The notes beneath the pieces are model-generated. The model did no database searches and had not been told where the DNA came from. It was given only the letters and a program-made list of their open reading frames with translations. From the NCBI GenBank assembly GCA_964492615.1, contig CAZBKZ010000008.1:13865-77864 (forward strand): a stretch of DNA of 64,000 nucleotides, given 5' to 3'. This stretch comes from an uncultured Syntrophomonadaceae bacterium. Lineage in GTDB: Bacteria; Bacillota; Dethiobacteria; DTU022. A program made the translations under genes and the position numbers. Shown one piece after another: positions 4,031 through 53,358 of the stretch (position 1 is the stretch's first letter; every line of letters begins with the position of its first letter).

Positions 4031-4627
4031 ATGAGTGTAAAAGTAGGCCAAAAAGCACCTGACTTTGAAGCAAACGTCTTTCATGAAGGGGCTTTTAAAA
4101 AAGTTAAACTTTCGGATTACCAGGGCAAATGGGTGATTATTTGTTTCTATCCCGGTGATTTCACCTTTGTCTGACCGACAGAATTGGCGTCAGTTGCCGC
4201 CAGGTATAAAGAAATCAAGGATCTTGATGCTGAAGTTTTATCCTGTAGTGTAGACAGCCAGTTTACTCATAAGATCTGGCAGGAAGTTGAACTTTCGAAG
4301 ATGGTTGAAGGAGGCGTTCCATACCCGATGATGGCAGATACCGGGGGGAAAATCGGTACCCTTTACGGTGTCTATGACGAAGAAGGCGGAGTTAATGTGC
4401 GCGGACGTTTCCTGATCGATCCCGACGGAGTTATCCAGGCTATGGAAGTTTTAACTCCCCCGGTTGGGCGCAATGTTGATGAGCTGATTCGTCAGCTTCA
4501 GGCATTCCAACATGTTCGTAAGACAAACGAGCCTACTCCTTCAGGCTGGAAACCGGGCAAGAAGTCGCTTAAGCCAGGGCCGGACCTTGTTGGCCGGGTT
4601 TGGGAAGCCTGGAAAATCGGAGACTAA
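4031..4627 (+). CDS. prxU: Selenocysteine-containing peroxiredoxin (AhpC/Tsa family, PrxU-like); UGA at 4172-4174 read as Sec at codon 48
   Basis: The ATG at 4031 has an AGGAGG RBS. Translation reads ...FYPGDFTFV-[TGA][13 protein letters not shown]..., so the UGA sits exactly where the peroxidatic Cys of the FTFVCPTE motif belongs. The listed ORF 4184..4627 is in the same frame and supplies the rest of the peroxiredoxin fold. A SECIS-like hairpin lies at 4184-4203. Confidence 0.7.
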
Positions 4628-5119: not shown

Positions 5120-5650
5120 ATGAAATTGGAATGCAGGGGTATAAGTGTTGAATGTGTAAAAGGGGATATAGCTTCCCAGGTTGACCTGGAAGCGGTTGTT
5201 AATGCTGCTAATGCTGAACTGCTACCTGGTGGCGGGGTGGCCGGAGCCCTCCACAGGGCAGCCGGGCCGGGATTAGAAAAGGAAGGAAGGCAACTGGCCC
5301 TGCTCAAGCCTGGCCAGGCAGTGATTACCGGGGGGCATAATCTTCCCAATCGCTTTGTCATTCACTGCCTTGGGCCGGTATATGGTATCGATAAACCGGA
5401 AAAAATTCTGCTGGCCGATTGCTATCGTAATGCCCTTAAACTTGCCGAACAACATCAAATTAGCAGTATAGCTTTTCCATCAATCTCAACCGGAATCTTT
5501 GGTTACCCGATGGCAGAGGCTGCTACAATAGCTTTTAAGACGGTTGGAGAAATGCTACCGTTTTTAAAACGGGTTAAACTGATTCGTTTTGTCCTATATG
5601 ATGCTGAAGCCCTGCAGCTACACGCTGAAATAATGAACGGTATTTTATAA
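5120..5650 (+). CDS. Macro-domain protein (O-acetyl-ADP-ribose deacetylase, MacroD/YmdB-like)
   Basis: VVNAANAELLPGGGVAGALHRAAG and SIAFPSISTGIFGYP motifs are typical of macro domains; 176 aa. Confidence 0.75.
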   Translation: MKLECRGISVECVKGDIASQVDLEAVVNAANAELLPGGGVAGALHRAAGPGLEKEGRQLALLKPGQAVITGGHNLPNRFVIHCLGPVYGIDKPEKILLADCYRNALKLAEQHQISSIAFPSISTGIFGYPMAEAATIAFKTVGEMLPFLKRVKLIRFVLYDAEALQLHAEIMNGIL

Positions 5651-5752
5651 AACAGGAATATAGCGGGCACTGATTGAGAAAGGTATTAGCATGTTTTACT
5701 CGAATAGAATAATTAACCATAGAGTAAATAAACAGGCAGGGCAGGTGAAAAT

Positions 5753-6037
5753 ATGGACCCAAAAGATGAAGCTTTTGAAAAAGCAATCAATACTATAAAA
5801 ATTGAACTAAGCGATCAGGAAAAGGTAGCGCTGCATGATCAGCTTGGTCGATTTCAGAAATGGCTTGAATTGATGGAGATGGCAGAAACAGAAGGTTCTG
5901 ATCTGCATTATTTCGGTTGCAGCGTGGAAAATAATATGAGAGAAGATCGACCGCTGGAAAGCGATCTGGAGGAAATCAGAAAAGAAGCTGTTGAGTTTGA
6001 AGATGGTTTCTACCTGGTTCCCAGAATAATTGATTAA
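5753..6037 (+). CDS. gatC: Asp-tRNA(Asn)/Glu-tRNA(Gln) amidotransferase subunit C
   Basis: 94 aa; NNMREDR and DGFYLVPRII match conserved GatC C-terminal motifs. It lies immediately upstream of the gatA-like and gatB genes. Confidence 0.7.
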   Translation: MDPKDEAFEKAINTIKIELSDQEKVALHDQLGRFQKWLELMEMAETEGSDLHYFGCSVENNMREDRPLESDLEEIRKEAVEFEDGFYLVPRIID

Positions 6038-6058
6038 ACCCCGGCAAGGAGGTTTGCT

Positions 6059-7465
6059 GTGAAGGCAACGGAGCTAAATGCGCTTAAAGCTGCGGAGGCG
6101 ATTAATAATCAGGAAGTGTCGGCTACCAGCTTTGTCGAAGAGATAATTGATTACTGTAAAGAACTAGATAACAAGAAAAAAATATTTTCCCACCTGGCTG
6201 ACGAAAAAGCGCTGGAGCAGGCAGCCGCGGTCGACCAAAAAGTTCAGGGTGGTTTCAATCTGCCCCTGGCAGGGGTGCCACTGGTCATTGCCGATAATTA
6301 TGCTTTCAAGGGTATGCCTGCTGCTATTGCTTCCAGGACCCTGCAAAATTACCATCCGCCATTCAGCGCAGCAGCTGTGGAAAAACTAACTGGTGCCGGA
6401 GCGGTTGTGATCGGGAAAACAATTGTTGGAGATATGGGGCTTGATACAGTTGCTGAAAAAGACAAAGAAGGTTCTTTATTTAAAGCTCCTCTTTATTTAG
6501 CAAAAGGGGGCGCTGCTGCCGCGGCAGCAGGTGGCTGTATTTTATCCCTGGAAAGTGACAGCAGTGGCATAACCAGGCAAACAGCTTCGCGAAACGGGGT
6601 TTTTGGCCTGCGCCCCACACCCGGAAGGGTTTCTAGGTTTGGTTTAAATCTGTGTTGTGGCTCATTTGATTATCCCGGTTTTGCTGCTGCCCACCTTGGT
6701 GATTTAGCTGTTTTATTACAGGCATCAACAGGATACGATGAGCGTGATGTTATGACTGCTGCCAACCGTATCCAGCGTGATAAATTTGTTTACGATAATA
6801 ACCCGTCAAGGTTAAAAATCGGTTTCTTTCCTTCGTATTTAGACTTTCTTGATGCAGAAGTGGCAGATACTTATGAAAAAATGCATCTGCTATGCAGAAA
6901 AATTGGTTTTAAAACTGTAGACTTGAAGTTGGGAATCCTGCAGGAATCTCTGCGGGCTTTTTATGTAATCTCATATGCCGAAACATCATCAACTTTGAGC
7001 CGGTTTGATGGTATCCGTTTTGGCTCTGCGGCAGAAAGCGATGACCTGGAGGAGTATTATTTCAAAACCCGGCGGCTTACTTTCGGGTCTGAAGCATGCC
7101 GCCGTTCAATAATTGGTACATACCTGTTAAGTGATGAAAACTATGGACGTTATTATAAAAAAGCGCTCAAAGTATTGAATAACACCCGGCGGCTTTTTGC
7201 AGAAATGCTGGATAAGTGCGATCTACTTCTTATGCCTCTTTATAAATCTGCTTCTCCGATAGCTGGTGCAGACTTTATTCAAACATACGAAGAGAATTGC
7301 TTGACTGCCCCGGTAAACATGGCAGGATTACCTTCCCTGGCTTTTCCCGGCGGTTTTCAGGTAATAGCAGAACCCTTTGGAGAAGAAAAATTGCTGGCGC
7401 TGGCGGAAAACCTTTCAATCGTTGAAGAAGTAACAGGCAGTAACAGCGAAAAGGGGGAGGTGTGA
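6059..7465 (+). CDS. gatA: GatA-like amidase-signature protein with substituted catalytic triad (candidate pseudo-glutaminase subunit)
   Basis: Position, length (468 aa) and flanking GatA-like sequence fit gatA. Where canonical GatA has IKDN...GGSSGGSAAAVAAG...GSDTGGSIRQPA, this protein reads IADN...GGAAAAAAGGCIL...ESDSSGITRQTA. The Lys-cisSer-Ser triad residues therefore appear as Ala, Ala and Ile. Confidence 0.65.
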   Translation: MKATELNALKAAEAINNQEVSATSFVEEIIDYCKELDNKKKIFSHLADEKALEQAAAVDQKVQGGFNLPLAGVPLVIADNYAFKGMPAAIASRTLQNYHPPFSAAAVEKLTGAGAVVIGKTIVGDMGLDTVAEKDKEGSLFKAPLYLAKGGAAAAAAGGCILSLESDSSGITRQTASRNGVFGLRPTPGRVSRFGLNLCCGSFDYPGFAAAHLGDLAVLLQASTGYDERDVMTAANRIQRDKFVYDNNPSRLKIGFFPSYLDFLDAEVADTYEKMHLLCRKIGFKTVDLKLGILQESLRAFYVISYAETSSTLSRFDGIRFGSAAESDDLEEYYFKTRRLTFGSEACRRSIIGTYLLSDENYGRYYKKALKVLNNTRRLFAEMLDKCDLLLMPLYKSASPIAGADFIQTYEENCLTAPVNMAGLPSLAFPGGFQVIAEPFGEEKLLALAENLSIVEEVTGSNSEKGEV

Positions 7466-7469
7466 TTAA

Positions 7470-8912
7470 ATGGCCTACGAAATAGTGATTGGCCTCGAAG
7501 TCCATGTTGAACTGCAAACAGCGAGTAAACTGTTTTGTTCCTGTCCAAATAGTTTTGTATCAGAGGCAAATAAACATACTTGCCCAGTGTGCCTGGGGTT
7601 CCCAGGAGCACTTCCCCGTTTAAATCGCGAGGCAGTAAAGCGGGCATTAACGGCTTCACTGGCTCTTAATTGTCAGATCGCCCTGACCAGTTATTTTGAT
7701 CGTAAAAATTATTTTTATCCCGATATGCCAAAAGGGTACCAGATCTCTCAGTTTTTTGAACCTATAGGAAGGTACGGTCATCTCGATATTGAAGACGATC
7801 GGGGAGATCTAAAAAGAATCCGTATCGGACGGGTTCACATGGAAGAAGATGCAGGAAAGCTCGTCCATTCACCTTCTGGTGACGGGGCGATGGTCGATTA
7901 TAACCGCGCCGGAGTCCCGCTGGTTGAGATCGTGACCGAACCGGATCTTTGTTCACCGGGCGAGGCAAGACGTTACTTGGAAAAGTTAAAGGCAGTTCTA
8001 CAGTACGCTAGGGTATCAGACTGTAAAATGGAAGAAGGCAGTCTCCGTTGCGACGCGAACATATCACTGCGCCCTGCCGGCAGTAAAGTGCTGGGCAATA
8101 AAACAGAATTAAAAAATATGAATTCATTTAAAGCTGTGGAACAGTCATTGGAGCACGAGATAAAAAGACAGAGGAAGATTCTCGACAATAACGAACAGGT
8201 ATTATCGCAAACGCTGCGCTGGAATGAGGAAAGCGGTACGACGATTGCCATGCGGGGTAAACTTCAGGCTCAGGATTACCGCTGTTTTACTGATCCCGAA
8301 CTGACCCCGGTTTGCCTTACAGATGAAGAAGTTGAAAGAGCTAAAACTGCCCTGCCGGAGATGGCGGAAGAAAGGGCCCTTCGTTTTGTGAAGGAGCTCG
8401 GGCTGCCGGTTTATGACGCAGGAGTTCTTACAGCAACCAGGGACCTGGCTGATTACTTCGAAAGCTGCCTGAAACACTTCAATAACCCTAAAACAGTCAG
8501 TAACTGGGTAATGGGTGAATTAACCGCTCTTTTAAACAGTGCCGGCCAGGAAATTAAAGGCTGTCGTTTTAGTCCCAAATTCATGGGAGAGCTGCTTGAA
8601 ATGATCGATGAGAAGGTTATCAGCGGGAAAATTGCCAAGGATGTTCTCGATAAATCATTCAAAAGCGGGAAAGCTCCGCACGAAGTTGTTAAAGATGAGG
8701 GATTATTGCAGATCAGCGATCAGTCAGAACTGGAAACGTTAGTTAAAAAGGTGATTGCAGGTAATCCGGATAGTGTGGAAAGTTACCGGGGTGGTAAAAA
8801 GAAAGTTATCGGTTTTCTTGTTGGCCAGGTTATGCAGGAAACTAAAGGTAAAGCAAATCCCCAGGTTGTTAATGAGCTGTTAGTGAAGATTATAGAAGAG
8901 AATGGTAAATGA
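7470..8912 (+). CDS. gatB: Asp-tRNA(Asn)/Glu-tRNA(Gln) amidotransferase subunit B
   Basis: N-terminus MAYEIVIGLEVHVELQT..KLFC.C, 480 aa, C-terminal YqeY-like domain. Confidence 0.9.
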   Translation: MAYEIVIGLEVHVELQTASKLFCSCPNSFVSEANKHTCPVCLGFPGALPRLNREAVKRALTASLALNCQIALTSYFDRKNYFYPDMPKGYQISQFFEPIGRYGHLDIEDDRGDLKRIRIGRVHMEEDAGKLVHSPSGDGAMVDYNRAGVPLVEIVTEPDLCSPGEARRYLEKLKAVLQYARVSDCKMEEGSLRCDANISLRPAGSKVLGNKTELKNMNSFKAVEQSLEHEIKRQRKILDNNEQVLSQTLRWNEESGTTIAMRGKLQAQDYRCFTDPELTPVCLTDEEVERAKTALPEMAEERALRFVKELGLPVYDAGVLTATRDLADYFESCLKHFNNPKTVSNWVMGELTALLNSAGQEIKGCRFSPKFMGELLEMIDEKVISGKIAKDVLDKSFKSGKAPHEVVKDEGLLQISDQSELETLVKKVIAGNPDSVESYRGGKKKVIGFLVGQVMQETKGKANPQVVNELLVKIIEENGK

Positions 8913-8958
8913 TACATACAGGCTGGTCTAGCAAGAGTTAATACAGGTAATAATAATT

Positions 8959-8984
8959 AAGGAAGGGCTAATGCCCTTCCTTTT
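8959..8984. terminator. Bidirectional hairpin terminator between gatB (+) and serC (-)
   Basis: aaggaagggc-taat-gcccttcc-tttt. Confidence 0.6.
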
Positions 8985-8993
8985 ATGTCACTT

Positions 8994-10118
8994 TTATGTG
9001 CCCGTTATTTCCTGATACGCCCACTCAAGCCATTGCATGGCCAGTTTCAGATCTTCTGCCTCCACCGTGGCGCCGCACCAGAAGCGCAACCCCGGAGGAG
9101 CGTCCCGGTAAGAGCCTATATCAAAAGCCGCTTTTTCGTCGGCCAGTAATTTAACCAGCTCTTTAATTCTGTCAGGTTCGAGTTCTACTGTAAGGCATAC
9201 ACTGGTGTTGGATCTGGTTTCAGGATTTGATGCTAAAAAAGAGATCCAGTTCCGGGTTGTTACAAAATCTTCAATTATCCGCAGATTATTCTCACTGCGC
9301 CGGACCAGGGCCGGCAGGCCGCCGATGCTTTCTGCCCAGCAGAGAGCATCAATATAGTCTTCATTACAAAGCATTGAAGGTGTGTTAATTGTAGATCCCT
9401 CAAAAATATCCTTAATTAAATTACCGTTTTTTGTCAGCCTGAATATTTTTGGTAAAGGTCTGGGAGGGTTAAAAGTTTCAAGCCGCTCTACTGCCCGCGG
9501 TGATAAGATTAATACGCCGTGCCCGGCTTCTCCCCCCAGTACTTTTTGCCAGGAAAAAGTGGCCACATCAAGCTTGTCCCAGGGGATATCCATGGCGAAT
9601 ACAGCTGATGTTGCATCGCAAATTGTTAACCCTCCACGGTTGATGGGGATAAAATCACCATTCGGCACTTTAACTCCGCTGGTAGTGCCGTTCCAGGTGA
9701 AAACAAGATCATGTTCAAAGTTTACCTGGCTTAAATCAGGCAGGTGGCCGTAATCAGCAGCATACAAGTTAACATTTTCAAGATTAAGCTGCCTGGTAAT
9801 GTCATCAGCCCAGGCTTTGCCAAACGATTCAAAGTAGACAACGTCCACAGGCCGGGCTCCAAGCAGGTTCCACATGGCCATCTCTAGAGCTCCTGTATCG
9901 GATGCCGGCACGATTCCAACCAGGTAGTCATCAGGCAGGTCAAGCAGCTGCCTGGTTTTTTCAATTGCTTTCTGCAGGCGGGCTTTCCCAATATTACTGC
10001 GATGTGAGCGTCCCAGTATGGAGATATCCAGCTTGTCCAGGCTGTAACCGGGACGTTTAGCGCATGGTCCGGAAGAAAAATTGGGACAGGCCGGTTTTTG
10101 CTCAGGTTTTACGTTCAT
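8994..10118 (-). CDS. serC: Phosphoserine aminotransferase (class V aminotransferase, Methanosarcina-type SerC)
   Basis: [15 protein letters not shown]-terminal motif and class V aminotransferase fold. I chose the start at 10118 (MNVKPEQ...), which follows a GGAGG RBS, rather than the longer listed ORF. Confidence 0.6.
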
Positions 10119-10422
10119 TATTTTGTCCTCCAGCTTCGTTAACATTGTGCAGATAATATATATCAACAATTGGCGCCTGTAAATAAATGCGAGTATCCAT
10201 GTTACAAAAAGCACAAGCGAATAATTTTTATTTTACCTTATTGTCATGCTGCTGTAAACGTGAAACCGGTTTTGCACTAAAAATTTTTGTTCTCTTAATG
10301 TGATCTGTTATAATAAGAATGTAGTAATGAAAAAAGATATCAATTAGAATAACAACTGCAGCTTATTATTTATAATGCGTTATCTAATAATGAATAATAT
10401 TTTCATTAAGGAGGGGTGTTCC

Positions 10423-11361
10423 GTGCGTCGTTTTGTTATATTTATTCTGGCCCTGCTCATGGTTACTGTTGTAAGTGCCTGTTACAGTAGTGATTTTAAG
10501 CATGCTGATCCGGGGAAAACAAGAGCTGTTACCACAATTTATCCTCTTCATAACATGATCAACGAGCTGGGTGGTGAGCTGATTAGCGCTGATTATCTGC
10601 TGCCTCCCGGTGCAAGTCCTCATACTTTTGAGCCGACGGCAGAACAGGCCAGATTAATCAGTGGCGCCGAGCTTTTTGTTTATATTGGTGCGGAGCTGGA
10701 TCAGTGGGCGGTTAAGATGGCCGATGGCTCAGATCCAGGACAGAAAGTTCTTGACCTGTCGCTTGAGGTACCTCTTATAACCCGCGAAACTAAGGAGAAT
10801 GACCAGGATTCCTGTGAAGAGCACGGCCATGACCACGGACCTGCCGATCCTCACTACTGGCTTGATCCGGTTTTGGTCAGGGATTATCTTGCCCCGGCTA
10901 TAACAGATGCTCTAGTCTCACTATCACCTGCTGATGAACAGTATTTTCTTGAACAACTTGAACGGTACCGGGAAGAGCTGAATAAACTTGACCGGGAAAT
11001 AAAAGCAGAGCTTGCAGCATATTCAGTAAAGAAATTCATAACATTCCATTCAGCCTGGCACTATTTTGCCCTTCGCTATAACCTGGAAGAAGTTGCTGTA
11101 ATTGCCAATTTCCCCGGTCAGGAACCCTCGGCCGGCTGGATGGCTGAGTTGGTTAAACTGGTTGATGAAAAGAAGATTAAGGTGATATTTGCCGAGCCCC
11201 AGTTTTCTTCTGCACTGGCTGAACAAATAGCAGCAGAAAGCGGTATTGAAGTATTGCTGCTCGATCCAATTGGGGGAGAAGGCCTTGGAGGCAGGGAAAC
11301 CTATCTTGATTTGATGCGTTACAATCTCGAGCTATTCAAGAAGGGATTTTCAGAAGAATAA
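10423..11361 (+). CDS. znuA: Zinc ABC transporter substrate-binding lipoprotein (ZnuA/TroA family) with a His/Asp-rich loop
   Basis: GTG start after an AAGGAGGGG RBS. Signal peptide with lipobox VSAC. His-rich insert EEHGHDHGPADPHYW typical of ZnuA. Cluster 9 SBP fold. Confidence 0.8.
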   Translation: MRRFVIFILALLMVTVVSACYSSDFKHADPGKTRAVTTIYPLHNMINELGGELISADYLLPPGASPHTFEPTAEQARLISGAELFVYIGAELDQWAVKMADGSDPGQKVLDLSLEVPLITRETKENDQDSCEEHGHDHGPADPHYWLDPVLVRDYLAPAITDALVSLSPADEQYFLEQLERYREELNKLDREIKAELAAYSVKKFITFHSAWHYFALRYNLEEVAVIANFPGQEPSAGWMAELVKLVDEKKIKVIFAEPQFSSALAEQIAAESGIEVLLLDPIGGEGLGGRETYLDLMRYNLELFKKGFSEE

Positions 11362-11394
11362 CGAGGCTGAGGTTTATCAGGGGAGGCTGCCGGT

Positions 11395-12162
11395 TTGAAA
11401 ACTGTAATCGATGCCCGAAATATTACTGTGATGCTTAGTGGTAAAGAAGTTCTTAAAAAAATCAGTTTTTCCGTGCGGCAGGGGGAACTTGTTGGTATTA
11501 TCGGGCCGAACGGGGCCGGTAAAACGACTCTGCTCAGGGCTCTGTTGGGCCTGGTTCCCCTGGCAAATGGCACCCTGAAAGTAATGGGCTGCTCATATCC
11601 AAATTTAAAAGCGGCAAGAGCAGGAATCGGTTATATGCCACAGAGACAATCGTTTGCAAGAAACATTCCCTTGTTGGTCAGTGATGTTGTGGCAACCGGA
11701 TTACTGTCGCATAAAACCCTGTTTAAAAGGCTTGATAAGGCCGAGAGTAAAATTATTGAGTCGCTTGATGCAGTAAGCATGAAGACTTACCTGAAAAGAT
11801 CTTTTCAGGATCTTTCAGGAGGAGAACAGCAGCGAGTTTTACTGGCCAGGGCCTTGGTTCGTCAGCCTGGTTTGCTGTTGCTTGATGAGCCGAACTCCGG
11901 ACTTGATTTTAATGCTCAAAGACAGTTTATAGAAATGCTTGATAAGCTAAAATCTAAAATGAATCTTGCAATAGCCTATGTCTCACATGATCTTGTTTCC
12001 ATTGCTGCTTCTTCTGACAGTCTGCTCTGTATAAACCGGACCATGCATATACATGGCGATCCGGCTGAAGTAATCCACAGCCCCCATTTTGAATGTGTTT
12101 ATCGCTGCCAGTTTGATTTGCTGAATAGTATTTTGCATGAAAGGGAGTGTTTGAATGAGTGA
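11395..12162 (+). CDS. znuC: Zinc ABC transporter ATP-binding protein
   Basis: Walker A GPNGAGKTT, signature LSGGEQQR, Walker B LLLDEP. TTG start with a GGGGAGG RBS. Confidence 0.8.
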   Translation: MKTVIDARNITVMLSGKEVLKKISFSVRQGELVGIIGPNGAGKTTLLRALLGLVPLANGTLKVMGCSYPNLKAARAGIGYMPQRQSFARNIPLLVSDVVATGLLSHKTLFKRLDKAESKIIESLDAVSMKTYLKRSFQDLSGGEQQRVLLARALVRQPGLLLLDEPNSGLDFNAQRQFIEMLDKLKSKMNLAIAYVSHDLVSIAASSDSLLCINRTMHIHGDPAEVIHSPHFECVYRCQFDLLNSILHERECLNE

Positions 12163-42248: not shown

Positions 42249-43895
42249 TTAATATTCATAACTGCGGGCAATGGGCATTCGCCTGCCCATACCAAAAGAA
42301 CGTGTTGTAACGCGTAGTCCGGGAGCGGCCTGGCGCCTTTTAAATTCGGCCCGGTCAACCATATAAATTACCCTTGCCACTGTTTCCGGTTCATAGCCCT
42401 TTTCTATAATTGCTTGCGCTGACAGGTTCTCTTCAATATAACAGTGCAGAATTGGATCCAGTATATGATAAGGAGGCAGGGAATCTTCATCTTTTTGGTC
42501 AGGACGCAGCTCTGCAGAAGGCGGTTTATTGATTGTTCTAATCGGTATTTGTTCGCTCCGGCAAATGTTGTTAATGTGATTAGCCAGCTCGTAAACCATC
42601 ATTTTGGGCAGATCGGCAATTACAGCCAGTCCACCGGCCATGTCTCCATACATCGTGCAGTAACCGACTGCGAGTTCCGACTTGTTGCCGGTTGTCAGGG
42701 CCAGCAGTCCTTCCCGGTTTGAATAGTGCATGATCAAGTTACCCCTTATACGTGCCTGCAGGTTTTCTTCCGCCAGGTCGCCCAGAGGCCCCATGCCTTG
42801 GTTTAGCTGGTCAATATAAGTGCTGAAGGGGTTGTCGATAGGAACAATGCGGTAAGGCATCCCCAGGTTTTCGGCAAGTCTGACCGCATCTTCAACGCTG
42901 TGTTCGGAAGAGTAAGGAGAAGGAAGCATTATACCTAAAACATTATCGGGGCCGAGAGCATACACTGCCAGGGCAGCAACAACAGCTGAGTCAATGCCGC
43001 CGCTCAAACCCAAAACAACCTTGCTAAAACCGGTTTTATGAACATAATCTTTCAATCCCGTCAGCAGAGCCTGGTAAATGGTATTAATGTTATCATTTGC
43101 TGGTGGCACGGTTTTTCCCGCCGGACTGTTTAGATCATCACTGTCAACGAAAAAAAGTTCTTCTTCAAAAGCGGCAGCACGATAAAGCAGCTCTCCGTTA
43201 CTGTTGTATACCAGGCTGCAGCCGTCAAAAACGAGTTCGTCGTTGCCTCCAACCTGGTTAAGATATATAATGCCACTTTTATACTTGGCAGATAAAAAGG
43301 ATAGAAGGTTTTCTCTAAGCCTGTGTTTGCCTAGATTATATGGAGACGCGGAAAGGTTGATTAGCATGCGGGCATCCTGCTTGAAAAGAAGTTCGACTGG
43401 ATCCAGGTTATGAATCGGATTGGCGAAAAAATCCCGATCATTCCAGATATCTTCGCATATAGTAATTGCTGCCGGGATGCCGTTCAGCATTTCAACCTGA
43501 CGATTGGTGCAGCTTGTGAAATAGCGTTTTTCATCAAACACGTCGTAGTTGGGCAGAAGGGTTTTATGGTGAACTGATTTGACCAGGCCATTTTCAAGGA
43601 CAAAAGCGCTGTTATACAGCTTACTATTTTCATTCTGGAAACTGCCGATTATGATCCCGGGATTTCCCTGGGCGGTTAGCGGAGCGATTTCATTTGAAAC
43701 TATTCTGTTTTCTCTTTCGATGAAGTCGCGGTAAAGCAGTAAATCTTTGGGGGGATAGCCACTAACAGCCATTTCGGTGAAGATAACAAGGTTTGCTTTT
43801 TCTTTCTTAGCTTTCATGTAGACATCTTTGATCCGGGCACAGTTTTTATTTAAGGCACCGATGGTTGGGTTAAGCTGGGCCAGTGCAATGCGCAT
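42249..43895 (-). CDS. nadE: Glutamine-dependent NAD+ synthetase (N-terminal CN-hydrolase domain plus NAD synthetase domain)
   Basis: N-terminal MRIALAQLNP nitrilase-type domain and C-terminal SGGIDS P-loop of NAD synthetase; 548 aa. Confidence 0.85.
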   Translation of the reverse strand: MRIALAQLNPTIGALNKNCARIKDVYMKAKKEKANLVIFTEMAVSGYPPKDLLLYRDFIERENRIVSNEIAPLTAQGNPGIIIGSFQNENSKLYNSAFVLENGLVKSVHHKTLLPNYDVFDEKRYFTSCTNRQVEMLNGIPAAITICEDIWNDRDFFANPIHNLDPVELLFKQDARMLINLSASPYNLGKHRLRENLLSFLSAKYKSGIIYLNQVGGNDELVFDGCSLVYNSNGELLYRAAAFEEELFFVDSDDLNSPAGKTVPPANDNINTIYQALLTGLKDYVHKTGFSKVVLGLSGGIDSAVVAALAVYALGPDNVLGIMLPSPYSSEHSVEDAVRLAENLGMPYRIVPIDNPFSTYIDQLNQGMGPLGDLAEENLQARIRGNLIMHYSNREGLLALTTGNKSELAVGYCTMYGDMAGGLAVIADLPKMMVYELANHINNICRSEQIPIRTINKPPSAELRPDQKDEDSLPPYHILDPILHCYIEENLSAQAIIEKGYEPETVARVIYMVDRAEFKRRQAAPGLRVTTRSFGMGRRMPIARSYEY

Positions 43896-45787: not shown

Positions 45788-47329
45788 ATGAGTAGAACCG
45801 GTATACTGATTAACAAGCCATATAAAAAGCTCAGCAGGGAGCAGGTTGAACTTATTGATCAAACCTCTCTTGAGCTCTTACAAACCCCCGGGATATTATG
45901 CTATCACGAAGAAAGTACCACCCTTTTTGAAAAGGAAGGCGCAAAAATAAAAAAAACCAAAGAAGGTGAACATGATGCCTGGTGGATTAGTATTCCACCC
46001 GGAGTTGTAAAGAGTGCTCTTGAGTCTGCTCCGGCCAGGGTTACCCTGGGTGCCCGCAATCCCGAAAATAGGGTAGTTTTAGACGCAGAAGGAAACAGGG
46101 TCTACTTCGGCACTGGTTCTGAAACTAATTACTGGCTGGAAATCGAGCCGGAGGAATTTACTTCTGATAAAGATGGGGCCAGGAGAACATTTGCGGTTAT
46201 GAAAAAAAGCCGGGGCAGCCTTAACCTGCTCTGCCGATCAGCTCATCTGGCAGAACAGCTGGAAAATCTCGATTTTTTTATCCGCAATGTTAATATTCAG
46301 GATTCTGATATTACAACAGGCAATAAAGACGTCAACGTATTTTTTGCTTCACTTAACCATCTGACTAAACCTGTTATCGGTGGGGTTGCTGATTATGAGC
46401 AGCTGGAAAAAATTGTTAGAATAGCTGAAATAATTGCCGGAGGAAGAGAGCAATTGAGGGAAAATCCCCTGGTTGCATTCATAACCAGCGTTATAAAAAG
46501 CCCGCTGCAGGTTGTTGATGATACCGCAGAAAAGTTAATTGCCATTGCCAGGCTCGGATTGCCTGTTGTTATTTCTACTTCTCCTCAGGGAGGATCAACA
46601 GCGCCTATCGATATGCTGGGTATGGTTGCCCAGGTTAATGCCGAAGCCCTGGCCGGTATAACCATTAATCAGCTTGCCAGTCGCGGCGCACCGGTGATTT
46701 ACGGGGCTGTCCCAGTCAGAGCCAGGATGGATGACTTGCATGACATGTACGGGGTCCCTGAATTCTGTCAATACACTATGGCCTGTGCACAGATGGCCAG
46801 GTATTACGGGGTGCCCTGTTATTCCACGGCAGGGGTTGGCGATGCCAAGGTTCCTGGTATTCAGGCAACAATGGAAAAAATGTACACCCATAGCATGGTT
46901 CCGCTTGCTGCTCCTGACCTGGTGCATTATTCTTTTGGGCTTCTTGACAAGACTCAGACTTATAGTCCGGAACAGGCAGTGCTGGATAATCATCAGATTG
47001 GCATGGTAAAATTTTTGCAAAGAGAACAGGAAGTTAATAGCAATTCAGCAGCTAAAACTAAGAAAATGATAGCTGACGTTATGCACAGCCCATACAGGAT
47101 GTATGCCCGTTATGCCAGGGGGATGCTCAGGCGTGGGGAAATTTTCGCCGGATTTCCTTTTGAAGGGAAATTGGAAGATCAGGACCAGACTTTGCTTAAG
47201 GTGCATGAAAAATTTGCTGAATTGGAAGCGGCTAAACCTAAATACCTGCCGGAAGATACCTGTAAATTAATCTTTAATGAAATATCCGGGCTTCTTCCGC
47301 GGCTTAATCCTTATGGGGAGGTTAAATAA
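45788..47329 (+). CDS. MttB-superfamily methyltransferase lacking pyrrolysine (glycine betaine/quaternary-amine:corrinoid methyltransferase-like, MtgB-type)
   Basis: 513-aa uninterrupted ORF (no in-frame TAG) with MttB-family TIM-barrel sequence features. Directly followed by a corrinoid protein gene. Confidence 0.8.
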   Translation: MSRTGILINKPYKKLSREQVELIDQTSLELLQTPGILCYHEESTTLFEKEGAKIKKTKEGEHDAWWISIPPGVVKSALESAPARVTLGARNPENRVVLDAEGNRVYFGTGSETNYWLEIEPEEFTSDKDGARRTFAVMKKSRGSLNLLCRSAHLAEQLENLDFFIRNVNIQDSDITTGNKDVNVFFASLNHLTKPVIGGVADYEQLEKIVRIAEIIAGGREQLRENPLVAFITSVIKSPLQVVDDTAEKLIAIARLGLPVVISTSPQGGSTAPIDMLGMVAQVNAEALAGITINQLASRGAPVIYGAVPVRARMDDLHDMYGVPEFCQYTMACAQMARYYGVPCYSTAGVGDAKVPGIQATMEKMYTHSMVPLAAPDLVHYSFGLLDKTQTYSPEQAVLDNHQIGMVKFLQREQEVNSNSAAKTKKMIADVMHSPYRMYARYARGMLRRGEIFAGFPFEGKLEDQDQTLLKVHEKFAELEAAKPKYLPEDTCKLIFNEISGLLPRLNPYGEVK

Positions 47330-48028
47330 ATGAGCAGTGATCTGCTTGAATTAATTGTAGAGAATGTTTTACAGGGTCGTCGTAACAGTGATGATGAAGG
47401 CATTGAGGAAGGAGATTTTGGTCAACCAGGGGTTGCTGAGCTGGTTGCCAGGGCCCTTGAAGATGGCATTAATACGGAACAGGTTCTCATAGATGGGCTC
47501 AGCCGTGGGATGCAGATGGTCGGTGACAAGTACGAAAGCGGTGAATACTTTATTCCTGATATGCTCACTGCAGCCGAAGCAGTGGAAGCCGGAATGGCTG
47601 TTCTGGAACCGTACCTGGTCAGCGGAGGTGAAAAGGCCGGCCGGGGTAAAATAGTAATGGCAACGGTTGAAAAAGATCTGCATGATATTGGCAAGAACCT
47701 TGTAACCATAATGCTCAAGGGGGCAGGCTTTAACGTGATTGACCTGGGAATTGATGTGCCGGCTGCCCGAGTGGTTGAGGTAGCTGAGCAGGAAGGCGCT
47801 GCCGTAATCGGTCTTTCGGCTTTACTTAACACTACAATGTCCAACATGAGTGAAGTGGTTAAGCTGCTTGAGGAGAAAGGGCTTCATGACCGCATCAAGG
47901 TATTAATTGGCGGTGCACCCGTATCCGATGATTTTGCAAGGGAAATCGGTGCAGATAGTTATGGCAAAGATGCTTTTGCGGCGATAAAAGAAGCAGAAAA
48001 ACTAATTGTATCCGGAGGGAATGTATAA
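47330..48028 (+). CDS. Cobalamin-binding corrinoid protein (MtbC/MtgC-like)
   Basis: N-terminal B12-binding-2 helical cap plus a Rossmann-like B12-binding domain with DxHxxG (DLHDIGKNLV); 232 aa. Confidence 0.8.
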   Translation: MSSDLLELIVENVLQGRRNSDDEGIEEGDFGQPGVAELVARALEDGINTEQVLIDGLSRGMQMVGDKYESGEYFIPDMLTAAEAVEAGMAVLEPYLVSGGEKAGRGKIVMATVEKDLHDIGKNLVTIMLKGAGFNVIDLGIDVPAARVVEVAEQEGAAVIGLSALLNTTMSNMSEVVKLLEEKGLHDRIKVLIGGAPVSDDFAREIGADSYGKDAFAAIKEAEKLIVSGGNV

Positions 48029-48029
48029 A

Positions 48030-49280
48030 ATGGAAGCTGACCAGGCATACCTGGAAGCCATACAACATGGTCGCTACAGTGAAAAAGTAAAAGGGTTACG
48101 CTGTAAGTATGATCACGTGCGCATACAATTTGAAGATTTCATTACAGCGTATTACCTGAGACCTTACCTGGAAGAAATGATGGAGCAGAAGCTTAACGGA
48201 GAAGAAAATGAAGGATTGCGTTTTTTTGATCTTGGCTGTGGAACTGGAGATGGATATGAACTGCTCTGCAAAATGGCAGGAGATACAAAACTGGCCGAGT
48301 TTGATACAAGGTTAATTCAGGAAGATATGGTACAACAGTACAAGGGGATTGACTTAAATATAGCCCTGCTTAAAGAAGCCAGGGAGTTATTTGGGCACTA
48401 TGAAAATGTTGATTTCTGCAAGGGTAATTTTTCTGAAGGTTTACCCCTGGAAGAAGGGGAAGAACCATATGATCTATATTTTACTTCCTACGGCACGCTT
48501 TCACACTGTAATGACGAAGAACTGGAAAGATTGTTTATTGATATTGCGAAACATGGGCGAGACGGCAGCCTGATCCTGGGAGACTTTATTGGCCGTTATT
48601 CGTATGAGTGGCAGGATACCTGGACGGTTCAACCCGAAGAACAGCCCTTTATTGACTATAAAATAAATTACCTGTATGCAGAAGAACAAAGGGATGAAGT
48701 GGATGTATCATCATTCCCGCTCCGACTGATGTCTCCGGTGGAATTGGACCAGATAATAGACGATGCCTCCCGGAAGAGCGGGGTCAGGTTGGAAGTATTG
48801 AAATACTTTGACCGCTCTCTTTTTATCGGCCGGCATATAGAAACAGGTACATATAACGGCAACCCTCAGCCACTGCGGCTTATGGTTTCGTCACTCTTTG
48901 AAAGAGGTTTGCGTACATATTTCCCCGATCTGAAAGTAAGTTTTCAGCCAAAAGAGGGTTTTAAACACGTGAATGAAGCGCTCCAGGTGTTGGCAGACAG
49001 CTGGAACAGCCTGCTTGACTATACAATGCTGTTAATGGAGCATTATGATGATGGGGAAGAACTGCTTCCCTACCCACCACAAACAGATATTAAATCTTTG
49101 GAGAAAGCATACAGGGTGATGCGACAAACCCTGGAGGGAAGCAGGGGGCTTTACGGTGATATCCGGGCGGATCTTATCGAAGCCCAGCTCGGTTATGCCC
49201 TGCGCAGCCTGGAAATGGGTCTGCAGAATGGCACCGGGGTTGGTCATGGACTGGTTGCTGTGATCCGGGTTAATAAGTAA
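48030..49280 (+). CDS. Class I SAM-dependent methyltransferase with a long C-terminal extension, embedded in the corrinoid methyltransferase locus
   Basis: Motif I FDLGCGTGDG and motif post-I (DLYFTSYG); about 416 aa. The start at 48030 is 8 nt after a GGAGGGA RBS and 1 nt after the corrinoid-protein stop. Confidence 0.55.
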   Translation: MEADQAYLEAIQHGRYSEKVKGLRCKYDHVRIQFEDFITAYYLRPYLEEMMEQKLNGEENEGLRFFDLGCGTGDGYELLCKMAGDTKLAEFDTRLIQEDMVQQYKGIDLNIALLKEARELFGHYENVDFCKGNFSEGLPLEEGEEPYDLYFTSYGTLSHCNDEELERLFIDIAKHGRDGSLILGDFIGRYSYEWQDTWTVQPEEQPFIDYKINYLYAEEQRDEVDVSSFPLRLMSPVELDQIIDDASRKSGVRLEVLKYFDRSLFIGRHIETGTYNGNPQPLRLMVSSLFERGLRTYFPDLKVSFQPKEGFKHVNEALQVLADSWNSLLDYTMLLMEHYDDGEELLPYPPQTDIKSLEKAYRVMRQTLEGSRGLYGDIRADLIEAQLGYALRSLEMGLQNGTGVGHGLVAVIRVNK

Positions 49281-49658
49281 AAGGGTTCTATGTACTCAAT
49301 ATCTATGATAATAAGCGCTGGGCTATAATCAGGCATGATTATCTGTCTTTAATCTTTCTAAAAGCGCAATTGCTTTGAATAAAGCATTTTAATGACGTAT
49401 ATCTGTCATATACGGTATTTGAATAAGGAAGCTTAATATGAAATAATTAATATATATTAATATGCACCAGTTCGTATTCATAAAAATCAAATATTATTCA
49501 AATTAACTTCACAACATCGCTATGTCTTATTTTAATTAATTTGTCAGGTAATGTGATTATAATAATCACTTATTTTGGTTTGCACCTGGTATAAAGTAGT
49601 GTGCTACTATTTTTGTTTTGCGCATTATTACAGAGAAAGGAAGGGTGATTGATAATAA

Positions 49659-50396
49659 ATGAACCTGAATGATGGCTTATTATCTAGTTATTTGTTTTCG
49701 GAAACCGGTTTTTCTTCTGTCACCGGACAGTCAGGCGTTGCGTCCTTATTTTCACGAACTGTTACATATTTTATGCGACGCAGTGATTTAGTCTGGGATT
49801 TGCTTTTAGAGCACATCTGGCTGGTTCTGGTATCAATTTTAATTGCAGTGGCAATAGCTGTCACAATTGGGGTTATCATCAGTTACAAGAGCAGTATAGC
49901 TATTACAGTAATAACTGTCTGCCAGATCTTGATGACCATCCCCAGTATGGCGATGCTTGCTTTTATGGTTCCCATCTTCGGCATAGGTTTTACTACCGGA
50001 GTAATGGCCTTGATCCTTTACAGCTTACTGCCGATCGTTCGCAACACATACACCGGTATTAAGGAAATCAGTCCTGCTATTGTAGAATCGGCAGTGGCCA
50101 TGGGCATGACCGAGTGGAGAGTATTGACCAAAATTAAGATCCCCCTGGCCCGCCCGGTAATCATGGCAGGTATCCGTACGGCAACTGTTATGATCGTTGG
50201 TATCGGCGCTATTGCAGCTTATGTAGGTGCCGGAGGGCTGGGAGAGTTAATTTTTCAGGGGATTTCCCGCTCACATGAACCGATGATAATTGTCGGAGCC
50301 CTTGGAGTTTCAATCATAGCGCTTGCTTTTGATTTCATTCTTTCGTGGGGAGAAAAAAAACTCATGGCAATCAGTAGAACAGGGGAGGCCAAGTAA
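49659..50396 (+). CDS. Osmoprotectant/betaine ABC transporter permease (OpuCB/ProW-like)
   Basis: Multi-TM permease with the ABC importer EAA-like loop region; its stop overlaps the ATPase start. Confidence 0.75.
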   Translation: MNLNDGLLSSYLFSETGFSSVTGQSGVASLFSRTVTYFMRRSDLVWDLLLEHIWLVLVSILIAVAIAVTIGVIISYKSSIAITVITVCQILMTIPSMAMLAFMVPIFGIGFTTGVMALILYSLLPIVRNTYTGIKEISPAIVESAVAMGMTEWRVLTKIKIPLARPVIMAGIRTATVMIVGIGAIAAYVGAGGLGELIFQGISRSHEPMIIVGALGVSIIALAFDFILSWGEKKLMAISRTGEAK

Positions 50397-51508
50397 TGAT
50401 CAAACTAGAAGGAATATCTAAAATATTTCCGGGATCCAAGGTACCGGCTGTTGATAACCTGAACCTGGAAGTTAAAGAAGGCGATATATGTGTTCTGGTT
50501 GGTCCTTCTGGATGCGGAAAGACCACAACCATGAAGATGATTAACCGGATTCACGAACCCAGCAGTGGATCAATCTACATAAATGGTAAAGACGCTTTGA
50601 AAATGAATCCGATTAAACTGCGCCTGGATATCGGCTACGTTATTCAGGAAATCGGATTATTTCCCCATCATACAATTGAAGAGAATGTGGCTACCGTTCC
50701 CAATGAAAAAAAGTGGCCCAGGGAAAAAACAAGAAAAAGAGTGGCCGAAATGTTGACCCTGGTTGGTTTGGACCCGGAAATTTACGGTAACCGCTATCCA
50801 TCCGCATTGAGCGGTGGGCAGCGCCAGCGGGTCGGAGTGGCACGGGCCATGGTCTCCGATCCCCCGATCATGTTGATGGATGAACCTTTTGGCGCAGTTG
50901 ACCCGATTACCAGAGCACGCTTGCAGAATGAATTTTTAAGGATCCAGGAAAGAATCAGTAAAACCATCGTTTTTGTAACCCATGATATCGATGAAGCGAT
51001 TAAGATGGGTGATACAATCGCAGTAATGAGAGAGGGCAAACTGGTGCAGCATGCTACACCGAGTGATTTGCTCAGCGCTCCTGCTGATGAGTTTGTAGGC
51101 AACCTGGTCGGACGAAACCGTTCTATCAAGCGTCTTCACCTGATTCGTATCCGTGAAATACTGGAACATGTGGACAGGGCAAAACCAGCCACAGTGGACA
51201 TGTCATTGAATGATCTGAAGCAGAGGCTTGATGATAGCGAAATTCATTCGGTTATGGTTGTTGATCGCGACAACAAGCTTAAAGGCGTTATCGGGGTTGC
51301 TGATCTTAAGCGCAAAGCCGGTGAAGTGGCTGCCGATTACATTCAGGAGTTGGATCAATCCGTTACAAGCGATGCTACTCTTAACGATGCGCTTTCGGTG
51401 ATGCTTGAATGCGGCGAGGGGTTTGTTGCCGTCGTTAATGAAGACGATCAATACCAGGGGACAATTACCCTTGGTGATTTGCTAAATGTTGTGAAGGAGG
51501 ACGGATAA
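50396..51508 (+). CDS. Glycine betaine/carnitine/choline ABC transporter ATP-binding protein with tandem C-terminal CBS domains (OpuCA/ProV-like)
   Basis: Walker A GPSGCGKTT, signature LSGGQRQR, Walker B LMDEP, followed by two CBS domains. Confidence 0.85.
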   Translation: MIKLEGISKIFPGSKVPAVDNLNLEVKEGDICVLVGPSGCGKTTTMKMINRIHEPSSGSIYINGKDALKMNPIKLRLDIGYVIQEIGLFPHHTIEENVATVPNEKKWPREKTRKRVAEMLTLVGLDPEIYGNRYPSALSGGQRQRVGVARAMVSDPPIMLMDEPFGAVDPITRARLQNEFLRIQERISKTIVFVTHDIDEAIKMGDTIAVMREGKLVQHATPSDLLSAPADEFVGNLVGRNRSIKRLHLIRIREILEHVDRAKPATVDMSLNDLKQRLDDSEIHSVMVVDRDNKLKGVIGVADLKRKAGEVAADYIQELDQSVTSDATLNDALSVMLECGEGFVAVVNEDDQYQGTITLGDLLNVVKEDG

Positions 51509-51511
51509 TCG

Positions 51512-52234
51512 ATGCTGCGAGATATCTGGCGGTGGGGCATACTTCCTCTTTTGTTGATTGCTGTAGGAGTTGCAATTGTAGTTTATGGAGTTAATAATCC
51601 AACCGATTCGCTGGTAGCCCGGGCGCTTACTTACGAAAATGTACTTAGGGGTTTGCGTCAGCACCTGATGCTTATGGTCGTCTCAATGTTTGGCGCAATT
51701 GTTATTGGTGTGTTGGTTGGTATAATGCTTTCCCGCCCAAAACTGTATTACCTGGGGCGCGGTGTTGAAAATGTGGTTAACGTGGGACAGACAATCCCCA
51801 GCCTGGCTATACTGGCTTTGTTTTTTACCATCATGGGGCTCGGTTTTAACGTGGCAGTATTCGCCCTGTTTTTATATTCTATTCTTCCCATCCTCAGGAA
51901 TACGTTTGCCGGTATTGTTAACGTGCAGAAGAGTATTATTGAATCGGCCAGGGGAATGGGTATGAATCCGTTACGTATTTTAGTCAAGATTGAACTGCCC
52001 CTGGCATTTCCGATTATAGTGGCAGGGATTCGCACAGCGATAGTTATAAACGTTGGCGCAGCTACCCTGGCTACCTTTATTGGTGGTGGAGGATTTGGTG
52101 ATTTAATTGTTACCGGCCTTTCACTGCGCCGGGATATGATTGTTTTTACCGGGGCAGGTCTGGCTGCCCTGACGGCAATATTTCTTGACTACTATATTGC
52201 CAGAATTGAAGAAAGATTGGTCAGGTGGACCTGA
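51512..52234 (+). CDS. Osmoprotectant ABC transporter permease (second permease, OpuCD-like)
   Basis: Paralogous to the first permease (...ILPI.RNT..GI..V...). Confidence 0.8.
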   Translation: MLRDIWRWGILPLLLIAVGVAIVVYGVNNPTDSLVARALTYENVLRGLRQHLMLMVVSMFGAIVIGVLVGIMLSRPKLYYLGRGVENVVNVGQTIPSLAILALFFTIMGLGFNVAVFALFLYSILPILRNTFAGIVNVQKSIIESARGMGMNPLRILVKIELPLAFPIIVAGIRTAIVINVGAATLATFIGGGGFGDLIVTGLSLRRDMIVFTGAGLAALTAIFLDYYIARIEERLVRWT

Positions 52235-52297
52235 TCATTTTAAGGTTTGGCTATTTTCCCATATGAGCAAATACCTGAAGGGGGTAAATCTATTAAA

Positions 52298-53218
52298 ATG
52301 TTTAAACGAGTTTTAATTACATTGATCATCATTGCATTACTGGCGGGTTCTCTATTTATATCTGGTTGCCAGTCTGGTGAAGATGGAGTAGTAATTGGTT
52401 CAAAGGAGTTCACCGAGTCGTTGATTCTCAGCCAGATATCCATACTGGCGCTCGAGGCAAATGGGATCCCGACAGTTGATGAAACAGGGCTTGGAGGTAC
52501 TGTAGTTGCCCGCGAAGCTCTTGAAGCAGGAGAAATCGATCACTACTGGGAATATACAGGAACAGCTTTGGTCAATTACTTCGGATTTGATGTACTTACC
52601 GATCCTGAGGAATGCTATCAGCTGGTTAGGGATACTGATCTTGAAAGAAATAATCTGGTATGGCTCGATTACACACAGTATAACAATACTTATGTAATTA
52701 TGATGCGCCAGGCAGATGCAGATGCTCTCGGTATTTATTCGATCAGTGATCTTGCTGCAGCTATTAACGAAGAGGTGGAAGCTCCTGAGCCGGGCACCTG
52801 GAAATTTGGTACCAATCATGAATACTCAACCCGTGATGACGGTTTTCCCGGTTTGCTTGAGCACTACGATTTTGAATTTGACAGTGTTGAAGTAATGGAT
52901 TACGGAATTCTTTATACAGCCCTGAGAGACGGTGAATTAGCCTCGGCGATGGGTTTTGGAACAGATGGCCGTATCACTCCTTTCGAATTGGTTATTCTGG
53001 AAGATGACCAGTTCTTTCACCCTGTCTACAACAGTTCCCCTGTTTTCCGTCAGGAAGTGATTGATGAGTATCCACAAATTCCGGAAATCTTAGGCCCAAT
53101 TGCAACTGCTCTTGACAATGAGAATATGGCGAATTTAAATAGGTTGGTTGATGAAGAAGATCATCTGCCAAGAGAAGTTGCCGAAGAATGGTTAATCGAG
53201 CAGGGTTTTATTGAATAG
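52298..53218 (+). CDS. Osmoprotectant (glycine betaine/choline-type) ABC transporter substrate-binding lipoprotein (OpuCC-like)
   Basis: Lipobox FISGCQ, ~300-aa mature protein, OpuAC/OpuCC-family fold features. Start at MFKRV after an AAGGGGG RBS. Confidence 0.8.
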   Translation: MFKRVLITLIIIALLAGSLFISGCQSGEDGVVIGSKEFTESLILSQISILALEANGIPTVDETGLGGTVVAREALEAGEIDHYWEYTGTALVNYFGFDVLTDPEECYQLVRDTDLERNNLVWLDYTQYNNTYVIMMRQADADALGIYSISDLAAAINEEVEAPEPGTWKFGTNHEYSTRDDGFPGLLEHYDFEFDSVEVMDYGILYTALRDGELASAMGFGTDGRITPFELVILEDDQFFHPVYNSSPVFRQEVIDEYPQIPEILGPIATALDNENMANLNRLVDEEDHLPREVAEEWLIEQGFIE

Positions 53219-53285
53219 GCCAGCTTTATTGGTCTTAAATGATAAATAAAAGTAATATTGCATATTAAGGGAAAGTAGCCGTTAT

Positions 53286-53335
53286 ATGGGGGTGAGTAGG
53301 GTAACCTAATCTTACCCCCATCATTATATATTTTT
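53286..53335 (+). terminator. Terminator-like hairpin after the transporter operon
   Basis: atgggggt...acccccat stem followed by an atatattttt run. Confidence 0.4.
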
Positions 53336-53358
53336 ACAACCAAACAGGAGGGATAAGC

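Follow-up and report, generated by a model that had tools for sequence, protein, structure and literature searches.

A GatA homologue without the catalytic Ser-cisSer-Lys triad in a gatCAB operon of an uncultured Syntrophomonadaceae bacterium: a candidate pseudo-glutaminase

The 64-kb stretch of DNA analysed here (the window) comes from contig CAZBKZ010000008.1 of an uncultured Syntrophomonadaceae bacterium and carries, on its + strand, a compact operon for the tRNA-dependent amidotransferase GatCAB in which the GatA subunit is without its catalytic triad. The first gene of the operon, gatC (5753-6037), encodes a protein of 94 amino acids that matches Pfam GatC at 30 bits (cutoff 23) and scores 45.8 bits on TIGR00135, slightly below the cutoff of 47.1. 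It is followed after 21 nt by the gatA homologue (6059-7465), which encodes 468 amino acids and begins with a GTG codon; a Shine-Dalgarno sequence, AAGGAGG (6046-6052), was read directly from the sequence 6 nt 5' of this start. The gene for the kinase/transamidase subunit, gatB (7470-8912, 480 amino acids), begins after a further 4 nt. This gene order is that of the subunits of a heterotrimer, the assembly of which is predicted from the genes. An earlier note on this DNA had reported a GatA-like gene between gatC and gatB, and the Pfam and NCBIfam scores of the gene, its GTG start and its ribosome-binding site bear this out.

The protein encoded by this gene, which we call the window GatA, matched the Pfam profile Amidase (PF01425) with 223.2 bits (cutoff 27) over profile positions 3-445 of 445. 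Among the NCBIfam families it fits gatA (TIGR00132) best, but its 286.5 bits are far under the curated cutoff of 481.1. The closest solved proteins by sequence were all GatA chains, with E-values from 2e-58 to 1e-53, and when the AlphaFold2 model of the protein (predicted local distance difference test score 88.4, predicted template modelling score 0.89) was searched with Foldseek, the top matches were again GatA chains, with template modelling (TM) scores of 0.84-0.89. Thus, the window GatA is a GatA homologue by its fold, its operon position and its best family match, and it departs from GatA in two features that define the equivalog, as it scores below the cutoff and is devoid of the catalytic triad.

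The triad positions were located by aligning the protein to solved GatA chains with HMMER, by MAFFT alignments in three sequence sets and by global pairwise alignment. Positions are given in Staphylococcus aureus GatA numbering unless noted; the numbering was carried by a canonical Clostridium GatA (P0053) whose alignment with residues 11-481 of the S. aureus protein is free of gaps and in which K79, S154 and S178 were verified. In the window GatA the catalytic Lys79 is replaced by Ala78 (codon 6290-6292) within the motif VIADN, and the nucleophile Ser178 is replaced by Ile171 (codon 6569-6571) within ESDSSGITRQTA (6551-6586). Both replacements had been read by eye in the earlier note, the first as IADN, and the HMMER and MAFFT alignments place them at exactly these positions. 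That note had also taken the cis-Ser to be substituted. The serine is indeed gone and the motif had been read correctly, but the change is not a simple substitution: three residues of the GGSSGGS loop, G153-S154-S155, are deleted and others are substituted, so that the shortened loop LAKGGAAAAAAGG (6497-6535), which holds no serine, stands in place of PGGSSGGSAAAVAAG. The signature is altered further by G172E, T175S, G176S, P182T, K192R and Y195P. Where the amidase signature calls for GGSS(G/A/S)G ... (G/A)(S/T)D(T/S)GGS(I/V)R.P, the window GatA has KGGAAAAAAGG ... ESDSSGITRQT. All three positions of the triad are therefore lost relative to characterised GatA. A misalignment that hides a shifted triad was considered and rejected, as HMMER, the three MAFFT sets and pairwise alignment agree and the loop is free of serine. 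Because the nucleophile, the cis-Ser and the Lys are all missing, it follows directly that canonical glutamine hydrolysis by the amidase-signature mechanism would be impossible for this protein as its sequence reads.

Other parts of the protein are retained. The GatA-specific motif SSTLSRFDGIRFG (6986-7024; S. aureus 318-330) is kept, as are R323, D325 and R358, while D425 is changed to Asn and N320 to Thr. R323, D325 and G326 are invariant both among the relatives of the window GatA described below and in canonical GatA. Reportedly, these three lie along the ammonia tunnel or at the interface with GatB (Nakamura et al. 2006).

When relatives were sought in a space of 5.8 billion proteins, 86 clusters formed at 90% identity were found to group with the window GatA, to which they are 37-70% identical; ordinary GatAs are about 30-36% identical to it. 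The three-residue loop deletion is present in 86 of these 86 clusters and the full Lys/Ser/Ser (K/S/S) triad in none of them. At position 178 the clusters have A in 57 cases, S in 19, V in 3, I and T in 2 each, and M, G and E in 1 each. K79 is retained in 73 of the 86, and in the subclade of the window GatA itself it is replaced by A, D, S, G or N. In comparison, K/S/S was kept in 80 of 80 canonical hits and in 79 of 79 GatAs from 79 GTDB species loci. The order gatC-gatA-gatB was found in six lineages, wherever the context was read, including L001, L081-L084 and L092, a locus of the extended clade. A Macro-domain gene, which in the window lies directly 5' of gatC (5120-5650, + strand), precedes gatC in every clade context examined, with bacA intervening in L082/L083, and the whole arrangement of Macro-domain gene, gatC, gatA and gatB holds where the GatAs are 45% (L081), 41% (L084) and 37% (L082/L083) identical to that of the window. 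The Macro-domain gene has no evident functional tie to the amidotransferase. Because the closest genome locus among the matches listed, L001, with 69% identity, belongs to an uncultured Syntrophomonadaceae metagenome-assembled genome, and because relatives of the GatB are named 'Dethiobacteria bacterium', 'Firmicutes bacterium ML8_F2' and 'Bacillota bacterium', the clade is placed, from the names of its relatives, in uncultured Dethiobacteria. Two of its members are named at NCBI, as 'amidase' or 'amidase family protein', which is expected because clade members score 251-417 bits on TIGR00132 and thus stay below its threshold.

This clade also settles whether a sequencing or assembly error could account for the run of alanines and the substitutions. 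We found no point in favour of such an error. Six contigs that were assembled independently and stem from different samples (L085-L090) show 0 differences in gatC, gatA and gatB, and since they are base-identical over all three genes a sequencing error is excluded; in addition, the matching deletion is found in all 86 related clusters and all relatives have homologous substitutions. The probability that remains for an error is negligible. One of the identical loci (L088) is from JGI sample 3300033170, an anaerobic digester in Wageningen (PMC10159854).

The distribution of the changes within the clade suggests how the triad may have been lost. The simplest history that we infer begins with the common ancestor, which would have lost the cis-Ser loop of the clade through the three-residue deletion; the nucleophile serine would then have drifted, to Ala in most members, and the Lys would have been lost last, in the subclade of the window; this order is proposed because the deletion is in 86 of 86 clusters, K79 is in 73 of 86 and position 178 is mostly Ala. 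A sister sub-lineage (P0252, P0412, P0415, P0417 and P0426-P0436) shares the loop deletion and keeps K79 and S178, and an Asp is conserved in what is left of its loop (AG-DGAAAAVA ... SSDTGGSLR). Its catalytic site may be either altered but active, or at the beginning of its decay. The existence of this sub-lineage, and the retention of R358, which binds the carboxylate of glutamine, in the window GatA and of R358 together with D425 in most clade members, would speak for a GatA that still hydrolyses glutamine or another amide by means of non-canonical residues. Against this, the window protein has only non-nucleophilic residues at the triad positions, namely Ala, a loop free of Ser, and Ile; position 178 varies among A, S, V, I, T, M, G and E over the clade; and T175, G176, P182, K192 and Y195 of the oxyanion and signature region are lost or variable. 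The residues that are conserved specifically in the clade are A, V, P, M, G, R, F, T and L with one Ser (359), which form no obvious triad, and among them no conserved replacement nucleophile was found. We therefore regard residual catalysis of this kind as very improbable.

The partner subunit, GatB, presents a different picture. The window GatB scored 653 bits on NF004012 (cutoff 338) and 571 bits on TIGR00133 (cutoff 315), it has the Pfam domains GatB_N and GatB_Yqey, and PDB GatB chains match it at an E-value of about 1e-153. In order to compare rates, GatA and GatB proteins of the clade were paired through equal lengths of their contigs, which yielded 23 pairs, and both genes from 45 canonical loci served as the baseline. 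In the canonical loci the median identity of GatA is 5 points above that of GatB (990 comparisons), whereas in the clade it is 25 points below that of GatB (253 comparisons). Where GatB identity is 70-80%, the mean identity of canonical GatA is 72% and that of the clade GatA is 49%. The same difference is seen at positions that are at least 95% conserved in canonical proteins: of 110 such positions in GatA, 56 are kept in the clade, 23 are partly kept and 31 are lost, but of 63 such positions in GatB, 60 are kept, none is partly kept and 3 are lost. The losses in GatA are concentrated on the signature of the amidases (125-129, 153-157, 172, 175, 178, 182, 192 and 195), and the positions kept include D80, S93, G120, K121, R180, Q181, S199, R200, S209, E316, S318, R323, D325 and G326. 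The three lost GatB positions, E265L, Y272C and D277E, share a stretch of 13 residues in the motif KLQAQDYRCFTDPEL (8259-8303; GatB residues 264-278), where the canonical KE..DYRYFP.PDL has become KL..DYRCF.DPEL in the clade, also in L081, L082, L084 and L092. These changes may reflect co-evolution with a dead GatA.

The ratio of nonsynonymous to synonymous substitution (dN/dS) between the window and L001 was 0.16 for gatA, 0.07 for gatB, 0.37 for gatC and 0.10 for the Macro-domain gene, values that are approximate as dS is about 1.1-1.2 and near saturation. Selection on gatA thus persists and is relaxed, and its constraint, estimated from the sequence comparisons, appears to be about half as tight as in a working GatA. 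Because of the rates and the counts of invariant positions, we regard the clade GatA as constrained, but loosely, and the GatB of the clade looks fully functional. Loss of the triad together with purifying selection gives the window GatA the features of a pseudoenzyme, its inactivity being predicted from the sequence. The earlier proposal that the gatCAB operon encodes a candidate pseudo-glutaminase is in this way supported by the alignments, the structure model and the comparative data. The consequence drawn in the earlier note, that the complex would depend on free ammonia or on another amidase, is a prediction.

A GatA that evolves faster than its GatB might also be one that is decaying into a pseudogene, in a cell that has both glutaminyl-tRNA synthetase (GlnRS) and asparaginyl-tRNA synthetase (AsnRS) and can dispense with GatCAB. 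This would fit with the cultured Dethiobacter alkaliphilus, a relative at the level of the class, which expresses a GlnRS/YqeY fusion and AsnB (PMC10376724 supplement). What stands against decay is that the open reading frame is intact in all 86 clusters, at a divergence that goes down to 37% identity, that 33 columns are invariant across the clade, that dN/dS of gatA is 0.16, that the ribosome-binding site is strong and the operon spacing tight, and that GatC and a highly constrained GatB are retained. Decay to a pseudogene is, in our judgement, most unlikely.

Together with the absent triad, the deletion throughout the clade, the operon context, the purifying selection and the fast GatA beside a constrained GatB, this makes it on balance probable that the gene encodes a dead GatA that is kept as a structural partner in a functional, ammonia-using GatCAB. 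In such a complex GatB would activate Asp-tRNA(Asn) and/or Glu-tRNA(Gln) with ATP and then amidate it, and GatA would release no ammonia from glutamine and would be under selection for its structural role beside GatC and GatB. It is known that folding and assembly require both GatC and GatA and that the first half of the ammonia tunnel is made up by GatA (PMC2330236, PMC4027206), and that NH4Cl can substitute for glutamine in tRNA-dependent amidotransferases in vitro (PMC4027206). The ammonia would most likely be drawn from free NH3/NH4+ in the cell, and it may still pass through the vestigial pocket of GatA and the tunnel between the subunits; for the tunnel this view draws on residue conservation. 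The most likely donor is free NH3, in a habitat that is anaerobic and rich in ammonia and/or alkaline; the Dethiobacteria papers found deal with soda lakes, serpentinite systems and high-ammonia biogas reactors. That the complex of GatC, GatA and GatB assembles and is active is suggested by the selection on its genes and by the conservation of the operon.

Several points weigh against this interpretation. The role of free ammonia as the nitrogen donor is purely inferred, and the dN/dS values are only approximate for the reason given above. The retention of R358 in the window protein, and of R358 and D425 in most of the clade, suggests that some binding of a ligand by GatA may persist. The glutamine-dependent NadE encoded in the window (42249-43895, - strand) has a CN-hydrolase Glu/Lys/Cys triad that appears intact; because of this, an organism-wide loss of glutaminase domains was rejected and the loss of the glutaminase is taken to be specific to GatA and not genome-wide. 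Lastly, a second canonical gatA or gatCAB, or AsnRS and GlnRS, may be encoded elsewhere in the genome, and in an unrelated Firmicutes lineage (L095) a dead operon and a canonical gatCAB do stand in tandem.

This last locus emerged from a wider survey, in which 1.84 billion cluster representatives were searched with a profile and 149 of the best 150 matches were checked. At least one triad residue was missing in 23 of the 149, and in a rough neighbour-joining tree these 23 fell into the main clade (9 representatives) and about 10 separate branches; as this sample favours sequences that resemble the query profile, it gives no estimate of how prevalent such proteins are. When five of the triad-deficient GatAs were looked up, all five were in gatC-gatA-gatB operons, and the closest named relatives of their GatBs are Clostridia. 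With the residues at positions 79/154/178 given in that order, they are P0286 (A/A/A, full-length loop; L091, 1879-5119), which at 536 bits is above the cutoff of the gatA model; P0253 (K/-/A; L092), of the extended clade; P0397 (Q/A/A, full-length loop; L093, 7714-10927), after ligA; P0303 (Q/A/C, full-length loop; L094, 838-4075), before yicC, remA, gmk, rpoZ and coaBC; and P0321 (D/A/A; L095), on a Lachnospiraceae-like contig. Those of L091, L093 and L094 belong to Clostridia-like lineages and represent independent cases. As judged from these sequences, loss of the triad is shown to be recurrent across lineages.

In L095 the operon with the D/A/A GatA is directly followed by a gatC-gatA-gatB operon with a K/S/S GatA (both within 5450-12016), the GatBs of the two being 64% and the GatAs 47% identical. 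This tandem is a precedent for the explanation that a canonical gatA or a second gatCAB elsewhere in the genome does the glutamine-dependent housekeeping and that the operon studied here is a specialised paralogue, such as an isozyme that depends on ammonia or has diverged in some other way, and our view of the genome covers 64 kb only. On the other hand, no second gatA, gatB or gatC was found among the window open reading frames scanned or in the roughly 20 kb around four relatives, GatB is strongly constrained (dN/dS and 60 of 63 invariants), and the locus is conserved across the clade. Moreover, other operons with a dead GatA adjoin housekeeping genes, such as ligA in L093 and the yicC-to-coaBC genes in L094, and 'GatA' appears once among the proteome entries listed for D. 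alkaliphilus strain Z-1002, beside a copper ATPase as in the window. We consider a housekeeping paralogue rather unlikely, though of the alternatives to a retained structural GatA it deserves serious attention, and it is partly compatible with the mode of action proposed for the complex. No AsnRS, GlnRS or second gatA, gatB or gatC was present among about 37 window open reading frames scanned with Pfam, a scan that leaves about 18 open reading frames of at least 150 amino acids outside it, and ARAGORN found no tRNA in the 64-kb window.

The proteome of D. alkaliphilus contains GatC, GatA and GatB, expressed from genes beside a copper ATPase gene as in the window, and no AsnRS is among the proteome entries listed (PMC10376724 supplement). 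If the window clade resembles D. alkaliphilus, its GatCAB would mainly serve the synthesis of Asn-tRNA(Asn). The genus Dethiobacter itself is probably outside the dead clade, because its protein is named GatA, while clade proteins score below the GatA cutoff, and because it is not among the clade hits: a profile search started from basal clade members recovered no Dethiobacter-named protein. When the GatA and GatB of D. alkaliphilus were compared by molecular weight with the protein sets collected, GatA had no match.

Ammonia could also be supplied in trans, by another glutaminase or amidase that works with GatB and GatC or with the window GatA. A candidate lies in the window itself, where the earlier note had pointed out an amidase with an intact signature (56371-57684, + strand, 437 amino acids), and the alignment does find K81, S150 and S174 in place. 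A preprint (bioRxiv 10.1101/733030) proposes that Tse8 of Pseudomonas aeruginosa, a protein of the amidase family, acts on the transamidosome, which lends some plausibility to such an arrangement. However, the amidase at 56371-57684 is 29% identical to canonical GatA, scores 186 bits on TIGR00132 against 286 for the window GatA, and is without the SSNLxRFDGxRxG segment (R323/D325), R358 and D425. Because these segments are absent, it is taken to be a generic amidase and its role as a surrogate GatA was rejected as unlikely; its best NCBIfam matches are to generic amidase families. It is also encoded 49 kb away, behind genes for MttB-family proteins and a nucleotidyltransferase. In relatives, the operon has no conserved glutaminase gene beside it. 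Supply in trans is accordingly improbable.

With these alternatives weighed, the retained, structural GatA in an ammonia-using GatCAB is the explanation that we favour. A stronger form of it, that this is the sole and obligately ammonia-dependent amidotransferase of the cell, that NH3 reaches GatB through the GatA pocket and the tunnel, and that such systems evolved repeatedly in anaerobic Firmicutes (in the Dethiobacteria clade and in at least four further lineages), is put forward tentatively, as something that could well be so and that we would stop short of calling probable. In that case these GatCAB enzymes without a glutaminase would make up a natural class that has gone unrecognised, in a translation pathway that is essential.

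Two further observations were made in the window. The gene at 4031-4627 (+ strand) encodes a 2-Cys peroxiredoxin (AhpC-TSA) with an in-frame TGA (4172-4174) at the position of the peroxidatic Cys, in FYPGDFTFV[TGA]PTELA, and it is likely to be a selenocysteine peroxiredoxin; in L081, in which the relative is 45% identical, and in the six identical assemblies it was likewise called as pieces of 47 and 147 amino acids. A cluster at 45788-55360 (+ strand) contains two methyltransferases of the MttB superfamily (45788-47329 and 53906-55360), a B12-binding corrinoid protein (47330-48028) and an OpuA-type glycine-betaine ATP-binding cassette transporter (49659-53218), which suggests demethylation of methylated amines or glycine betaine, with release of nitrogen compounds.

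GatCAB, which most bacteria cannot do without, is the standard example of an enzyme in which an ammonia tunnel joins a glutaminase to a tRNA-dependent kinase/transamidase. If the interpretation given here is true, the pathway would run in vivo without catalysis by GatA, and the clade would be a natural system in which the structural and tunnel roles of GatA are separated from its catalysis. It would also link the fidelity of translation and the supply of nitrogen to ammonia-rich or alkaline anaerobic habitats. There is a consequence for annotation as well. The GatAs of the main clade fall below the GatA cutoff, and two of them carry amidase names at NCBI; P0286, a recently inactivated A/A/A protein, passes it and is presumably named as an active GatA by pipelines that rely on this model. 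In metabolic reconstructions of uncultured Dethiobacteria, both 'GatCAB present' and 'GatA absent' may therefore be misleading. Our literature searches found no published description of a natural GatA without the triad inside a gatCAB operon.

The system can be compared with several that are known. With the canonical GatCAB of S. aureus (2DF4/2F2A) and Aquifex aeolicus (3H0L) it shares the gene order, the GatA fold, a canonical GatB and the GatA residues R200, S209, E316, R323, D325 and R358. The canonical enzymes, however, have the triad and the full GGSSGG loop where the window GatA has neither, owing in part to its three-residue deletion, and has lost 31 of 110 invariant positions, and in canonical loci GatA evolves more slowly than GatB, which is reversed in the clade. 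Saccharomyces cerevisiae GatFAB that is bypassed with NH4Cl (PMC4027206) likewise carries out transamidation without glutamine hydrolysis, which is the natural mode proposed here, but that bypass was seen under laboratory conditions or in mutants of an active GatA, whereas the loss described here is natural, fixed and present throughout a clade. AtzE-AtzG (PDB 6C62), described as 'vestigial' and derived from GatA/GatC, is another pair of GatA-like and GatC-like proteins outside their standard role and was rank 10 among the fold matches. By its PDB description AtzE is an enzyme of s-triazine catabolism, whereas the window GatA has lost its triad and has kept its GatB and its operon. AtzE is an active hydrolase and works without GatB. 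Tse8 (PDB 6TE4, a weak match at an E-value of 2.5e-7) is an amidase-family protein that is reported in connection with GatCAB and protein synthesis in bacteria; it is a secreted toxin of the type VI secretion system encoded outside gatCAB, and the window GatA is a resident subunit of the operon. The nearest parallel in chemistry is offered by the isozymes of NadE and by AsnA/AsnB, in which the same synthetase reaction occurs with or without a glutaminase, and the tandem operons of L095 resemble such a pair; in the ammonia-dependent isozymes the glutaminase domain is absent altogether, whereas here GatA is retained as a subunit that is predicted to be inactive.

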